From Escherichia phage CICC 80001, in the sequence record NC_027387.1: a stretch of 38,810 bases of DNA. One strand, 5' to 3'. A model generated the notes under the pieces. That model worked only from the letters and a program-made list of their open reading frames with translations. It was not told where the DNA came from and ran no database searches. Below, piece after piece: positions 1-38,810 of this stretch (the first letter of the stretch is position 1; every line of letters begins with the position of its first letter). Position numbers and translations under genes: made by a program.

Positions 1-1254
1 CGTGAAGCTGACCGTTCCAAATCTGAGGCCAATCGTGCTAAAGGTTATGCTGATAGTATGATAGAAAGTGTTGAGACAGCCAAAGGTCACGCCGACCGTT
101 CCAATAAGGAAGCTAATCGTGCTCGTGATGAGGCTGACCGTGCTGCTGGAGAAGTCACTAAGGCCGCTGCACATGTTGTCACCGCTGAGGAACATGCTGA
201 CCGGGCTGACACTGAGGCTAACCGTGCGAAGAGTGAAGCTGACCGCGCGAAGATTGAGGCCGATAAGTTGGGTAACACGAACGCACTTGCTGGGACCATT
301 GACAGAATTGAGGATAATGATGTCCACTTCAAGGGTAAAATAGGCGCGCGCTCTTTGAATCTACATAATGATGCAAAAGGTGAGGGTACACAGCCAGTTG
401 ACCAAGTGTGGAACCAATGGCGCGCACAGGACTCTAAGGTTACTGCATGGGAACAGTGGATTCGGGCTGGAAGTAAGCGCATGGACTACTATGTTTTCAC
501 TAGTACGGACCCGGAAACTTGGCCTGAAGGTCGCTCCAATAGTAAAGGTAATCATACATTTTATGGGGACGTTCTATTTGCTGGTGGTAACGTGGAGATG
601 CACGGCAACCTTTATGTTAATGCAGTCGATTCTAAAAATACCGTTGCCCTTACAAATGTGGGTGCTAGCTTTAGGGCAAAAACACAAGGTGGCGGATGGA
701 GCCAGTGGACAGGAAGTCAATCTCCAGACGTGCAGCATGACATTGAAGGGCAGGGTGATACAAGCTATCTCCTTGAGCGAGCTACAATTTGGGGCAAAGA
801 ACACCTGTACGGTAAATGCTTGTACAACAATGGTACTGGTGCAAACTTCTTTATCCGTCACTACCTTCGCAATGCTTACTTTGATGTGTGTTCGGATGGT
901 TCCCTTAAAAGCTCTACGGGGTGGTACATTCCATCAGATGGTAACTTATTCATCAAGAAGTATGACTCGTACATTGATACTTGGGTCAACAGACGCTTGG
1001 GAGAACATGCCTACACTAAAAGTGAAGTGAACAGCCTAATTAGTAGTAACAAACAAGGGGCGAATAGTGTCTATTGGGGTCCGTCGCGATCCGTTGCAAG
1101 GAAATACTATAGGTCGCAAGAAATCCTAGCTGGGGGTGGCGAGGCTATGACTGGCATGGTGTTTGATGAACAAAACATAGTGAGTGGTGTGCGTTTCTGT
1201 GCTCTGTGGATAACCTTCCACGATGGTACAAAGCGTATCGTTGCATCACAATAA
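1..1254 (+). CDS. 17: Tail fibre protein gp17, C-terminal part (5' end runs off the window start; continues from the N-terminal part at 38238..38810 if the genome is circularly permuted)
   Basis: Frame-1 ORF open from nt 1; EADR/EANR coiled-coil repeats then a globular tip; architecture parallels T7 gp17 (EADKL..NxLAGxIDxxDxxxVxxKG) but the distal domain is diverged; followed by the holin gene as in T7. Confidence 0.85.
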   Translation, partial: READRSKSEANRAKGYADSMIESVETAKGHADRSNKEANRARDEADRAAGEVTKAAAHVVTAEEHADRADTEANRAKSEADRAKIEADKLGNTNALAGTIDRIEDNDVHFKGKIGARSLNLHNDAKGEGTQPVDQVWNQWRAQDSKVTAWEQWIRAGSKRMDYYVFTSTDPETWPEGRSNSKGNHTFYGDVLFAGGNVEMHGNLYVNAVDSKNTVALTNVGASFRAKTQGGGWSQWTGSQSPDVQHDIEGQGDTSYLLERATIWGKEHLYGKCLYNNGTGANFFIRHYLRNAYFDVCSDGSLKSSTGWYIPSDGNLFIKKYDSYIDTWVNRRLGEHAYTKSEVNSLISSNKQGANSVYWGPSRSVARKYYRSQEILAGGGEAMTGMVFDEQNIVSGVRFCALWITFHDGTKRIVASQ

Positions 1255-1267
1255 AGGAGACAATAAA

Positions 1268-1597
1268 ATGCGTAAGTTCTACAACTGGAAGTACAGCATT
1301 ACTTATGCTTATGGACAACCAACGTATGACGTGATTGACAAAGAAGGTAACGACTGGTATCGCCTGATGTGTGAACTTGAAGTTCGCCCTGAGAAGTGGG
1401 TCGTTGGGGTTAACCCCAACGGCTCAGTCTCTTGGTGGTCTGATGGTTCCGTAGATGGTACATATGCGCCGCCTGAAGGTGGCATGGTGATTGTTTGTGA
1501 AGAGTTCCTACCTGATTATGGACAACGCTGGGTGGACTCTGAGGACCGCTGGGAGTTGATTTCAGAAGCGACTAAAGCACCTAAGGAGGGTAGTTAA
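1268..1597 (+). CDS. Hypothetical protein (110 aa) between tail fibre and holin; possible tail-fibre accessory or assembly protein
   Basis: ATG at 1268 preceded by AAGGAG; stop directly abuts holin start (TAAATG at 1595-1600); no counterpart at this position in T7 as I recall it. Confidence 0.6.
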   Translation: MRKFYNWKYSITYAYGQPTYDVIDKEGNDWYRLMCELEVRPEKWVVGVNPNGSVSWWSDGSVDGTYAPPEGGMVIVCEEFLPDYGQRWVDSEDRWELISEATKAPKEGS

Positions 1598-4423: not shown

Positions 4424-4867
4424 ATGATAAACAAGAAGAAGTATGTTGTCGATAAGGATACTGGCTGCTGGAACTTTAAGGGCTGTAAGACTAAGACTGG
4501 TTATGGTCGTATTCGTGTAAATGGAGTCCATTGGATGGCCCACAGGTATTCCCTGAGTTGTCATCTAGGCAGACCGATAGCTGACGGAATGGTTGTGATG
4601 CACCTGTGTGATAACCCCTCATGTGTTAACCCTGAGCACCTTAAGGAAGGGACTCAGAAGGAAAACATAGAGGACTGCATCTCAAAAGGTCGAGCAACTA
4701 AGGCCACAGGCAAACGCGATGCGTCGAAGAGAGACCCTAGCGAGGAACGTAAGGCTATAGTGATTCGTAGATACCATAAAGGCTGGACCGCAACGTCCAT
4801 AGCGAGATACCATAAGCTCTCTGTGGCGTGGGTCAAGAGGGCCATTGAGGAGTACCTAAGTGATTGA
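4424..4867 (+). CDS. HNH homing-endonuclease-like protein
   Basis: 147 aa; GCWNFKGC...GYGRIRVNGVHWMAHRYSL...MHLCDNPSCVNPEHL core (His-Asn-His with Cys pairs) plus basic C-terminal tail; AAGGAGG RBS; same architecture as T7 gp2.8/gp7.7-type proteins but at a different locus. Confidence 0.85.
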   Translation: MINKKKYVVDKDTGCWNFKGCKTKTGYGRIRVNGVHWMAHRYSLSCHLGRPIADGMVVMHLCDNPSCVNPEHLKEGTQKENIEDCISKGRATKATGKRDASKRDPSEERKAIVIRRYHKGWTATSIARYHKLSVAWVKRAIEEYLSD

Positions 4868-6997: not shown

Positions 6998-7198
6998 ATG
7001 AGTAAACTTCTGGCAACATCTAAAATCAAAGGTCAATGCACTGTAACACTGCGAGAGTATGATCACGGGGCAATGGGTAGCACCTACGTTGTGCGATACG
7101 GTAAACAAGTCACCCAATGGGTGAACGAGGTTTTGGCACAAGAAGAATACCAAGCCTGCGTGATACACCAAGCAACATGTGCAGGCTGGAATGACTGA
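6998..7198 (+). CDS. Hypothetical early protein (66 aa), no T7 counterpart at this position
   Basis: ATG at 6998 with AGGA 8 nt upstream; ORF MSKLLATSKIKGQCTVTLREYDHG...; between genes 0.4 and 0.5, flanked by two RNase III-like hairpins; listed ORF 6953..7198 trimmed to the Met outside the hairpin. Confidence 0.55.
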   Translation: MSKLLATSKIKGQCTVTLREYDHGAMGSTYVVRYGKQVTQWVNEVLAQEEYQACVIHQATCAGWND

Positions 7199-11720: not shown

Positions 11721-11972
11721 ATGGGCCGTTTATATAGTGGGAACCTGAATGTCTTCAAGGCTGCTTGCAACAGGCTCTACCAGTTGGACCTTGCTGTTAT
11801 AGTTGTTGAGAAGGAAGGTTCACCAAACATAAAGGCGACCATGTACCTTCGGATTGAAGACCGTACTGGTCGCATAGTTGTTCAGGAGGAGATTCACCAC
11901 TGCGACGAAGACGTTCTGTACAATATGGGAACCGCCTGGCTGAACCGTATGTACGACCAGTTGAAGCACTAG
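11721..11972 (+). CDS. 1.2: gp1.2 host dGTPase inhibitor
   Basis: 83 aa MGRLYSGNL...DEDVLYNMGTAWLNRMYDQLKH, matches T7 gp1.2; listed ORF 11637..11972 trimmed to the conserved Met. Confidence 0.85.
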   Translation: MGRLYSGNLNVFKAACNRLYQLDLAVIVVEKEGSPNIKATMYLRIEDRTGRIVVQEEIHHCDEDVLYNMGTAWLNRMYDQLKH

Positions 11973-11975
11973 AAG

Positions 11976-11998
11976 TAATACGACTCAGTATAGGGACA
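11976..11998 (+). promoter_or_regulatory. T7-type promoter phi1.3
   Basis: TAATACGACTCAGTATAGGGACA followed by an RNase III-type hairpin. Confidence 0.8.
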
Positions 11999-12056
11999 AT
12001 GCTTAAGGTCGCTCATTGAGTGGCCTTAGTCATTTAACCGATAGGAGATAAACATT

Positions 12057-13078
12057 ATGATGAACATTAAGACCAACCCATTTAAAGCCGTGTCTTTCGT
12101 AGAGTCTGCCATTAAGAAGGCTCTGGATAACGCTGGGTATCTTATCGCCGACATCAAGTATGATGGTGTACGTGGGAACATCTGCGTAGACAATACCGCT
12201 AACAGTTGCTGGCTCTCTCGTGTATCTAAAACGATTCCGGCACTGGAGCACCTAAACGGATTCGATGCACGCTGGAAGCGCCTTCTGAATGATGACCGTT
12301 GCTTCTACAAAGATGGCTTTATGCTTGATGTAGAACTCATGGTCAAGGGAGTAGACTTCAACACTGGGTCTGGCCTACTGCGCACCAAATGGACTGACAC
12401 GAAGAACCAAGAGTTCCACGAAGAGTTATTCGTTGAACCAGTCCGTAAGAAAGACAAGGTTCCCTTTAAGCTGCACACTGGACACCTTCACGTCAAACTG
12501 TACGCTATCATCCCTCTGCACATCGTGGAGTCTGGAGAAGACTGCGATGTCATGACGTTACTCATGCAGGAACACGTTAAGAACATGCTGCCTCTGCTAC
12601 AGGAATACTTCCCTGAAATCGAATGGCAAGCGGCTGAGTCTTACGAGTCTACGACATGGTTGAACTACAGCAACTGTACGAGAAGAAGCGTGAAGAAGGA
12701 CATGAGGGTCTCATTGTGAAAGACCCGATGTGTATCTATAAGCGCGGTAAGAAGTCCGGCTGGTGGAAACTTAAGCCAGAGAACGAAGCAGACGGCATCA
12801 TTCAGGGTCTTGTATGGGGAACCGAAGGTTTAGCGAATGAGGACAAAGTAATCGGATTTGAGGTGCTTCTTGAGAGTGGTCGTGTAGTTAACGCCACAAA
12901 CATCTCTCGCACCTTAATGGATGAATTTACAAACACAGTTAACATTGAAGGTGAAACATACTACAACGGGCACGCTTGCCAGATTGCGTACATGGAGGAA
13001 ACACCTGACGGCTCTCTGCGTCACCCATCGCTCGTAATGTTCCGTGGCACCGAGGATAACCCTCAAGAGAAAATGTAA
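12057..13078 (+). pseudogene. 1.3: ATP-dependent DNA ligase gene 1.3, split by a -1 frameshift near 12647/12648
   Basis: ORF 12057..12719 encodes the ligase N-terminal part (adenylation motif KYDGVRG); ORF 12656..13078 in the +1 frame encodes the C-terminal part (MVELQQLYE...HEGLIVKDP...RHPSLVMFRGTEDNPQEKM); one G missing relative to T7 ...TACGAGGTCTACGA... Confidence 0.75.
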
Positions 13079-13084
13079 CCATAC

Positions 13085-13113
13085 TGGCTCACCTTCGGGT
13101 GGGCCTTTCTGCG
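13085..13113 (+). terminator. Early (host RNA polymerase) terminator TE
   Basis: GGCTCACC-TTCG-GGTGGGCC stem-loop followed by TTTCTGCGTTT; same position as T7 TE after the ligase gene. Confidence 0.8.
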
Positions 13114-13115
13114 TT

Positions 13116-13138
13116 TAATACGACTCACTAAAGGAGGT
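13116..13138 (+). promoter_or_regulatory. T7-type promoter phi1.5
   Basis: TAATACGACTCACTAAAGGAGGT. Confidence 0.85.
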
Positions 13139-13145
13139 ACACATC

Positions 13146-13235
13146 ATGATGTACGTAATGCCATTGCTAATCATCATCATAGGATGCCTTGCGCTCACCT
13201 GTAGCGATGACGATATGCCAGATGGTCACGCTTAA
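13146..13235 (+). CDS. 1.5: gp1.5 small protein
   Basis: 29 aa MMYVMPLLIIIIGCLALTCSDDDMPDGHA, matches T7 gp1.5. Confidence 0.7.
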   Translation: MMYVMPLLIIIIGCLALTCSDDDMPDGHA

Positions 13236-13255
13236 TACGACTCACTAAAGGAGAC
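13233..13255 (+). promoter_or_regulatory. T7-type promoter phi1.6
   Basis: TAATACGACTCACTAAAGGAGAC. Confidence 0.85.
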
Positions 13256-13260
13256 ACTAT

Positions 13261-13520
13261 ATGTTCAGACTTCACTTCAACAAAAGTCTTAAGAATTTCA
13301 CGGTTCGCCGTGCTGACCGTTCAATCGTATGTGCGAGCGAGCGCAGAGCTAAGTTACCTCTTATTGGTGACACAGTTCCTTTGGCACCGAGCGTCCACAT
13401 CATTATCACTCGTGGTGACTTCGAGAAAGCAATAGACAAGAAACGTCCGGTTCTTAGTGTGGCAGTGACCCGCTTCCCGTTCGTCAGTCTGTTACTCAAA
13501 CGAATCAAGGAGGTGTTCTG

Positions 13521-13521
<1 letters not shown>
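13261..13521 (+). CDS. 1.6: gp1.6 homologue
   Basis: 86 aa [31 protein letters not shown]..., matches T7 gp1.6. Confidence 0.9.
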
Positions 13522-14143
<622 letters not shown>

Positions 14144-18684: not shown

Positions 18685-20841
18685 ATGATCGTTTCTGACA
18701 TCGAAGCTAACGCCCTCTTAGAGAGCGTCACTAAGTTCCACTGCGGGGTTATCTACGACTACTCCACCGCTGAGTACGTAAGCTACCGTCCGAGTGACTT
18801 CGGTGCGTATCTGGATGCGCTGGAAGCCGAGGTTGCACGAGGCGGTCTTATTGTGTTCCACAACGGTCACAAGTATGACGTTCCCGCATTGACCAAACTG
18901 GCTAAGTTACAGCTTAACCGTGAGTTCCATCTACCCCGCGAGAATTGTATCGACACCCTTGTGTTGTCACGTTTGATTCACTCCAACCTGAAAGACACCG
19001 ATATGGGTCTGCTGCGTTCCGGTAAGTTGCCCGGTAAACGCTTTGGGTCTCACGCTTTGGAGGCGTGGGGTTATCGCTTAGGCGAAATGAAAGGTGAATA
19101 CAAGGATGACTTTAAGCGTATGCTTGAAGAGCAGGGTGAAGAATACGTTGATGGAATGGAGTGGTGGAACTTCAACGAAGAGATGATGGACTATAACGTT
19201 CAGGATGTTGTGGTCACTAAGGCTCTCCTTGAGAAGCTACTCTCTGATAAACATTACTTCCCTCCTGAGATTGACTTTACGGACGTAGGATACACTACGT
19301 TCTGGTCAGAATCCCTTGAGGCCGTTGACGTTGAACATCGCGCTGCATGGCTACTCGCTAAGCAAGAGCGCAATGGATTCCCGTTTGACACGAAAGCAAT
19401 CGAAGAGTTGTACGTAGAGTTAGCTGCTCGCCGCTCTGAGTTGCTCCGTAAACTTACCGAAACGTTCGGCTCATGGTATCAACCTAAGGGTGGCACCGAA
19501 ATGTTCTGCCATCCGAGGACTGGTAAGCCATTGCCTAAATACCCTCGCATTAAGACACCTAAAGTTGGTGGCATATTTAAGAAGCCTAAGAACAAGGCAC
19601 AGCGAGAAGGCCGTGAGCCTTGCGAACTTGACACCCGCGAGTACGTTGCTGGTGCCACATATACTCCGGTAGAGCACGTAGTGTTTAACCCTTCTTCCCG
19701 TGACCACATTCAGAAGAAACTTCAAGAGGCTGGATGGGTCCCGACTAAGTACACCGATAAAGGTGCACCTGTGGTGGACGATGAGGTCCTAGAGGTAGTA
19801 AAAGTAGATGACCCTGAGAAGCAAGCCGCTATCGACCTTATTAAAGAATACTTGATGATTCAGAAGAGAATCGGACAGTCTGCTGAGGGAGACAAGGCAT
19901 GGCTTCGTTACGTTGCTGAGGATGGTAAAATTCATGGTTCTGTTAACCCCAATGGTGCTGTTACTGGGCGCGCTACTCACGCTTTCCCTAACCTCGCACA
20001 GATACCCGGTGTCCGCTCTCCTTATGGTGATCGGTGCCGCGCTGCTTTTGGCGCTGAACATCACCTAGATGGACTCACAGGTAAGCCTTGGGTTCAGGCT
20101 GGTATAGACGCCTCAGGTCTGGAGTTGCGCTGCTTGGCACACTTCATGGCTCGCTTTGACAACGGTGAGTATGCTCACGAGATTCTCAATGGTGACATTC
20201 ACTGGAAGAATGCAATTGCTACTGACTTAGCACCAAACGTTGCCCGTGATAAACACAATAAGGAACACGACCTAATGCGAGATAACGCCAAGACGTTTAT
20301 CTATGGGTTCCTCTATGGTGCTGGAGATGAGAAGACTGGGCAGATTGTCGGTGCTGGTAAAGAGCGCGGTAAGGAACTCAAGAAGAAATTCCTTGAGAAC
20401 ACCCCTGCGATTGCGGCACTCCGAGAGTCTATCCAACAGACACTTGTTGAGTCCTCTCAGTGGGTAGCTGGTGAACAGCAAGTCAAGTGGAAACGTCGCT
20501 GGATTAAAGGTCTGGATGGTCGTAAGGTACACGTCCGTAGTCCTCACGCTGCCCTGAATACCCTACTGCAATCCGCTGGTGCGCTTATCTGCAAACTGTG
20601 GATTATCAAGACCGAAGAGATGCTCGTAGAGAAAGGCTTGAAGCATGGCTGGGATGGGGACTTTGCGTACATGGCTTGGGTACACGATGAAATCCAAGTC
20701 GGTTGCCGTACCGAAGAGATTGCTCAGTTGGTCATTGAGACCGCACAAGAAGCAATGCGCTGGGTTGGAGACCACTGGAACTTCCGGTGTCTTCTGGATA
20801 CCGAAGGTAAGATGGGTCCTAACTGGGCAGTATGTCACTAA
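18685..20841 (+). CDS. 5: gp5 DNA polymerase (family A, with 3'-5' exonuclease domain)
   Basis: 718 aa, near-identical to T7 gp5 except a roughly 14-aa insertion encoded around 20224..20280. Confidence 0.97.
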
Positions 20842-38237: not shown

Positions 38238-38810
38238 ATGGCTAACGTAATTAAAACCGTTTTGACTTACCAGTTAGATGGCTCCACTCGTGATTTCAAT
38301 ATCCCGTTTGAGTATCTAGCCCGTAAGTTCGTAGTGGTAACTCTTATTGGTGTAGACCGCCGTGTTCTCACGTTAAATACAGATTATCGCTTTGCTACTC
38401 GTACTACTATCTCACTGACTAAGGCTTGGGGGCCAGCGGATGGCTATACTACCATCGAGTTACGTCGAGTAACCTCCACGACCGACCGCTTGGTTGACTT
38501 TACGGACGGCTCAATCCTCCGTGCGTATGACCTTAACGTTGCTCAGATTCAAACGATGCACGTAGCGGAGGAGGCTCGCGACCTAACTGCGGATACCATC
38601 GGTGTCAACAGTGATGGTCACTTGGATGCCCGTGGTCGTAAGATTGTGAACCTTGCGTTCGCTACCAGTGACTATGATGCTGTCCCTCTGAAACAGATTA
38701 AGGACCGTGAGTCCTCTGTGTGGAATGCTGTTACCAAAGCTGATGAACATGCTGACCGCTCTACTCGTGAAGCTAACCGCTCTCGTGATGAGGCTGACCG
38801 TGCTAAGCGT
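38238..38810 (+). CDS. 17: Tail fibre protein gp17, N-terminal part (3' end runs off the window; 191 complete codons)
   Basis: MANVIKTVLTYQLDGSTRDFNIPFEYLARKFVVVTLIGVDRRVLTLNTDYRFATRTT... matches the T7 gp17 tail-attachment domain, then diverges into EADR/EANR repeats. Confidence 0.95.
   Translation, partial: MANVIKTVLTYQLDGSTRDFNIPFEYLARKFVVVTLIGVDRRVLTLNTDYRFATRTTISLTKAWGPADGYTTIELRRVTSTTDRLVDFTDGSILRAYDLNVAQIQTMHVAEEARDLTADTIGVNSDGHLDARGRKIVNLAFATSDYDAVPLKQIKDRESSVWNAVTKADEHADRSTREANRSRDEADRAKR

Follow-up and report, generated by a model that had tools for sequence, protein, structure and literature searches.

Results

The ligase gene of the phage is divided between two frames

The window, i.e. 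the whole stretch of 38,810 nucleotides that was analysed (Escherichia phage CICC 80001, NC_027387.1), is a complete, circularly permuted T7-like (Teseptimavirus) genome with an overall identity of only about 92-93% to its nearest records. In the region of the DNA ligase gene 1.3 (11900-13500), the ORF list holds two ORFs on the same strand, which together with the adjacent signals form the following set of features:

11976..11998, plus strand: promoter phi1.3, upstream of the ligase gene (TAATACGACTCAGTATAGGGACA, two mismatches to the T7 consensus)
12057..12719, plus strand: 5' fragment of gene 1.3, a 220-aa ORF identified by its PF01068 match (E=5e-17) and by tblastn with T7 gp1.3
12646..12647, plus strand: site of a 1-nt deletion, a G lost from the GG across codons 197/198 (GAG GTC)
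12656..13078, plus strand: 3' fragment of gene 1.3, an ATG-initiated 140-aa ORF that comprises ligase residues 201-340 (PF17879 and the end of PF01068)
13084..13117, plus strand: counterpart of the early terminator TE, 34 nt identical to T7 in the sequence around 7588, the TE position annotated there

The phi1.3 counterpart does not differ from T7 at the place annotated as phi1.3, and the TE hairpin, which is absent from a simple terminator scan and was located by direct comparison with T7, directly follows the ligase stop codon. Promoter, RBS and terminator of gene 1.3 are unchanged. A difference from T7 exists in the R1.3 RNase III hairpin region (12012-12020), which precedes the ligase start, reads CTCATTGAGTGG instead of CTCTCTAGGAGTGG and is 2 nt shorter.

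Alignment with phages IME390, YpYeO9, PSP2-22, WX1 and T7 revealed that a GG doublet of gene 1.3 is reduced to a single G at 12646/12647, GAGGTC of the relatives being represented by GAGTC at 12645-12649 of the window. In the local alignments with IME390, YpYeO9, PSP2-22 and WX1 a single gap separates TACGAGGTCTACG of the relatives from TACGAGTCTACG of the window, and T7 carries TACGAGGTCTACGATATGG at position 7060. An earlier reading of this DNA, which had only the letters and the ORF list at hand (the sequence-only reading), had claimed that a single-base deletion splits the ligase gene; the alignments with the relatives and with T7 confirm this claim, including the place of the lesion, and the T7 sequence that had been given in its support matches T7 exactly.

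The 5' ORF encodes ligase residues 1-197 (12057-12647) followed by 23 out-of-frame codons and ends with a TGA stop codon at 12717-12719. The part that is kept thus comprises 197 residues and not the 196 that had been given. The second ligase frame is open from 12635, upstream of its ATG at 12656; the frame change had been recognized as well, but its direction is -1 (equal to +2 relative to the first frame) and not +1. A tblastn search with T7 gp1.3 returned two abutting HSPs in different frames, covering residues 1-197 and 198-359, so that the split is not a chance pattern. Addition of one G restores a ligase ORF of 340 aa, within the 340-350 aa that had been estimated, which is 97.9% identical to the ligase of IME390 and equal in length to the ligases of IME390 and YpYeO9. 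As it stands, the frame changes after codon 197 and does not run uninterrupted through the about 335-360 codons of a functional ligase. The public sequences closest to the region are those of IME390 and PHB20 (96.6% nucleotide identity each) and YpYeO9 (95.3%), all three of which match with 1102 bases against 1101 query bases.

Domains and motifs on either side of the break

According to Pfam, the ligase adenylation domain PF01068 is distributed over both ORFs, the first of which matches profile positions 2-177 and the second positions 165-204 (E=2e-9), while the T7-type ligase OB-fold C-terminal domain PF17879 resides on the second (E=1.4e-43). The KxDG motif I with the adenylylated lysine is present as IKYDG (residues 33-37, Lys34) and aligns with the same residues of T7 ligase (1A0I). 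In contrast, motif III, D-G-E in T7-type ligases, reads D-V-E in the window. Motifs I and III are located upstream of the break, which is followed by EGLIVK (motif IV), WWKLK (motif V), the OB domain and motif VI. The break itself separates motif IIIa from motif IV inside the nucleotidyltransferase domain, the domain boundary being near residue 240. As both the uninterrupted frame and the DGE of motif III are missing, the locus is to be filed as a disrupted ligase gene rather than as two ligase proteins.

Sequence, synteny and domain content identify the locus as gene 1.3 of the T7 group. It lies between genes 1.2 and 1.5/1.6 together with phi1.3 and TE, hence in the same place as the T7 ligase gene (1A0I; PF01068 and PF17879), after 1.2, behind phi1.3 and before TE, and the repaired protein shares 87% of its residues with T7 ligase (1A0I match, E=7.5e-206). 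Unlike T7 ligase, it is broken after codon 197, carries DVE for DGE as well as the substitutions G263D and F326L, and in its repaired form has 340 aa, the length class of IME390 and YpYeO9, as compared to 359 aa. The ligase is also a mosaic with respect to T7: within 12057-13078, tblastn identity amounts to 96% for residues 1-197 and only 77% for residues 198-340, with an apparent recombination boundary near the frameshift site.

Gene 1.3 is the only T7 gene with a frame break

When 53 T7 proteins were compared by tblastn with the window doubled across its ends, every conserved T7 gene appeared as one colinear HSP, including those for RNA polymerase, primase-helicase, DNA polymerase, exonuclease and portal as well as for scaffold, capsid, tail, core proteins and terminase; gp1.3 alone was split between frames. 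Thus, no second frame break was found among the T7 genes of this 38.8-kb genome. Partial tblastn HSPs had raised the possibility that genes 0.4, 0.6 and 19.5 are truncated, which was rejected since direct translation shows these genes to be intact. A second frameshift at the tail fibre had been considered on account of a 124-aa ORF (1223..1597) overlapping the end of gene 17. It was likewise rejected, as other T7-like phages have this ORF annotated as a separate gene and the phrog_4242 match covers the fibre nearly to its end.

The survey is directly relevant to the possibility that the phage truly carries GAGGTC and a single 340-aa ORF and that one G was dropped from the consensus during sequencing or assembly. 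Such an artefact might be suspected, because the lesion is a single-base deletion in a (short) homopolymer and is unique to the window sequence. However, other frame breaks and a long homopolymer context, which would be features of sequencing error, were both missing: the run affected has two bases and represents a low-risk context, and none of the longer ones, 182 homopolymer runs of at least 4 bases throughout the genome, is associated with a detected frameshift. The lesion therefore does not bear the signature of a homopolymer sequencing error. In addition, the ligase gene makes up 1.02 of the 38.8 kb, so that a lone random error would hit it with a probability of only about 3%.

Several further features of the genome emerged from this comparison. 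The tail-fibre gene 17 (38238-38810 joined to 1-1254) spans the window ends, as the genome is circularly permuted. The C-terminal two-thirds of the fibre share only 75-78% DNA identity with the nearest records, a divergence that suggests a receptor-binding module not yet represented in the phage collection. The ORF at 1223-1597 lies between gene 17 and the holin gene 17.5, where nothing is present in T7 and IME390; it belongs to no PHROG family, and its homologues are hypothetical proteins of Citrobacter, Klebsiella and E. coli T7-like phages. An HNH homing-endonuclease ORF (4424-4867; phrog_6254, E=3e-60) directly follows the terminase gene 19. The only matches to T7 genes 2.8 and 7.7 are with this HNH ORF, their T7 positions being without a counterpart, and T7 genes 1.4, 3.8 and 5.3 gave no tblastn match anywhere in the window. 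The DNA polymerase (18685-20841) has 718 aa compared to 704 aa in T7, i.e. about 14 extra residues, and differs at two conserved positions by the private changes P325T and A513T. Gene 1.7 (13521-13838) encodes 105 aa, compared to 196 aa in T7, and has the same short form in IME390.

The lesion is unique to the window among related sequences

A degenerate 25-mer bearing the deletion had no match in viral, metagenome and genome contigs, whereas the intact version matched 15 viral contigs, and look-ups of the exact proteins showed that neither ligase fragment is on record. The lesion is therefore without an independent second observation. Among 95 related loci with a ligase match, 90 have one full-length frame; three of the remaining five are cut by the locus ends, and two look broken (L085 and Salmonella phage PSP2-22). 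In PSP2-22 (L003, ON886116, 1563-2582 and beyond), two frame changes have led to the annotation of the ligase as two CDS, and the RNA polymerase is annotated as two CDS as well, which together indicate a low-quality, error-rich assembly. The record demonstrates that error-induced split ligases do exist among public T7-like sequences and in this respect lends some weight to an artefact in the window. It differs, however, in that its two frame changes are located elsewhere in the ligase and are accompanied by the split RNA polymerase, whereas the window contains a single lesion and no other frameshift in 38.8 kb.

The distribution among relatives also bears on the question of whether the gene still works, either by -1 frameshifting within the overlap (12635-12719) or by assembly of two fragments, residues 1-197 plus the tail and residues 201-340. 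The two frames overlap by 85 nt, the in-frame ATG at 12656 is only 9 nt past the lesion, and the expression signals of the gene are, as described above, unchanged, all of which would be compatible with a functional product. Programmed -1 ribosomal frameshifting is exemplified by T7 gene 10A/10B, and its features are a slippery heptamer and conservation among relatives. Neither was found here: no heptamer of the type X XXY YYZ occurs in 12600-12720, and the break is missing from all 90 full-length intact relatives, arguing against a conserved recoding signal. Programmed frameshifting is thus unlikely, and it was rejected along with transcriptional slippage given that the overlap contains neither such a heptamer nor a run of at least 4 bases. 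With regard to two cooperating fragments, the split is inside the nucleotidyltransferase domain and not at the domain boundary near residue 240, the ATG at 12656 is preceded only by a weak GAG and lacks a Shine-Dalgarno sequence as good as the one at the true start, and fragment complementation received no positive support from computation. G92V affects motif III regardless of any recoding. Taken together, we consider a functional ligase from this locus to be scarcely credible.

Private substitutions at conserved ligase positions

The residues of the repaired ligase were surveyed against 120 family representatives obtained by clustering at 90%. Exactly three residues occur in none of the 120, and all of them are at near-invariant positions:

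12330..12332, plus strand: G92V, codon 92 GTA (Val); Gly in 118, Cys in 2 and Val in 0 of 120 representatives
12842..12844, plus strand: G263D, codon 263 GAC (Asp); Gly in 119, Ala in 1 and Asp in 0 of 120
13031..13033, plus strand: F326L, codon 326 CTC (Leu); Phe in 117, Trp in 3 and Leu in 0 of 120

Codon 92 is GGA or GGG in the relatives. G92 is the middle residue of motif III, so that DGE becomes DVE, and aligns with FMLDGELMV of 1A0I; in T4 ligase, Asp and Glu of this motif touch the AMP ribose and the motif I Arg (PMC6212786). F326 lies within the segment LRHPSFVMFRG, and its replacement by Leu is conservative.

As a control, the same test for private residues was applied to 32 other genes of the window with up to 76 related loci per gene, the rate being counted at columns that are at least 95% conserved:

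Ligase: 3 private residues in 111 conserved columns
Deeply sampled genes (0.7, 1, 1.6, 2.5, 3, 3.5, 4, 4.3, 4.7 and 5): 5 in 1373
All other genes: 22 in 4990

The ligase exceeds the deeply sampled genes with an odds ratio of 7.6 (Fisher p=0.017) and all other genes with p=0.016, an enrichment that rests on three substitutions and is statistically modest (p about 0.02). The ligase changes from G to V and from G to D are also more radical than the five counted in the deeply sampled genes (K to R, F to Y, V to A, P to T and A to T). Such an excess at conserved positions of the sequences compared speaks for a real relaxation of selection on the ligase. It further argues against an artefact, as the gene has independently acquired three substitutions at near-invariant positions, including one in the catalytic motif III.

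With five relatives, pairwise dN/dS is 0.05-0.11 (about 0.06) on either side of the break, and no further stop or indel is present downstream of it. The perfectly kept downstream frame and the low dN/dS would also be expected if the G had been lost from the consensus only. If the lesion is real, the same values indicate that inactivation is recent, which fits with the gene being still recognisable. Compared to the three closest relatives, 6 of 8 private changes are synonymous (G92V being outside that screen), suggesting that most of the private branch was under constraint. Gene 1.3 thus has four lesions, G92V, the frameshift, G263D and F326L. It might be speculated that these reflect selection against an active ligase in the natural host, or a new role of a truncated or two-piece product, and that ligase loss was selected and not neutral; we regard this as very improbable.

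Discussion

Pseudogene, sequencing error and split gene had been offered by the sequence-only reading as the options for gene 1.3, and our analysis ranks them in exactly this order. The likely explanation is that gene 1.3 is a true pseudogene of recent origin and that the phage depends on the ligase of its host, as the frame break is the sole one in the genome, the gene is dispensable and three private substitutions are enriched in it. An artefact of sequencing or assembly appears unlikely by comparison, also because ligase-normal hosts are known to support phages with a deletion of gene 1.3 (PMC2696425).

For the pseudogene, we propose that an evolutionarily recent 1-nt deletion (GG to G, 12646/12647) would have inactivated the ATP-dependent DNA ligase gene 1.3. 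The normal start codon would then give rise to the 220-aa product, which has motif I and a motif III that is damaged already (G92V) but lacks motifs IV and V, the OB domain and motif VI, so that no active ligase would be made. Okazaki fragments and nicks would then be sealed by the NAD-dependent ligase of the host (LigA), which would also serve recombination and repair. From the disrupted frame we infer that ligase activity is lost and that the phage relies on the host enzyme. This agrees well with earlier work on T7 and T3, where mutants deleted for gene 1.3 grow, with a certain loss of fitness, as long as the host is ligase-normal (PMC2696425); the dispensability of the ligase on such hosts goes back to Studier 1973, as cited in the same article.

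Ligase-minus T7 and T3 are a long-known laboratory kind, of which the window phage would be a natural example. Gene 1.3 deletions of both phages have been used in work on compensatory evolution (PMC2696425). Similar to these mutants, which grow on ligase-normal E. coli by means of the host enzyme, the window phage would lack a ligase of its own, yet its other genes are intact. In contrast to them, it is a natural-isolate-like genome and not engineered or selected, and its lesion is a point frameshift and not a deletion of the kind carried by the laboratory strains. A literature search for natural T7-like ligase pseudogenes or ligase-triggered defence yielded nothing specific.

The finding implies no new mechanism and is biologically ordinary; its importance is mostly for annotation, where a single disrupted gene 1.3 (pseudogene) should take the place of the two ORFs. 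Provided that the lesion is real, the phage would be a naturally occurring ligase-null T7-like phage and is predicted to fail on ligase-deficient hosts. In phiKMV-like phages, the phage ligase has been linked to the repair of restriction and CRISPR cuts (bioRxiv 10.64898/2026.09.21.753257). By analogy, it might be speculated that a phage without ligase is more sensitive to restriction or CRISPR cutting. As ligase has been linked to the repair of nuclease cuts, a natural ligase-null T7-like phage may thus serve as a test case for when this function pays.
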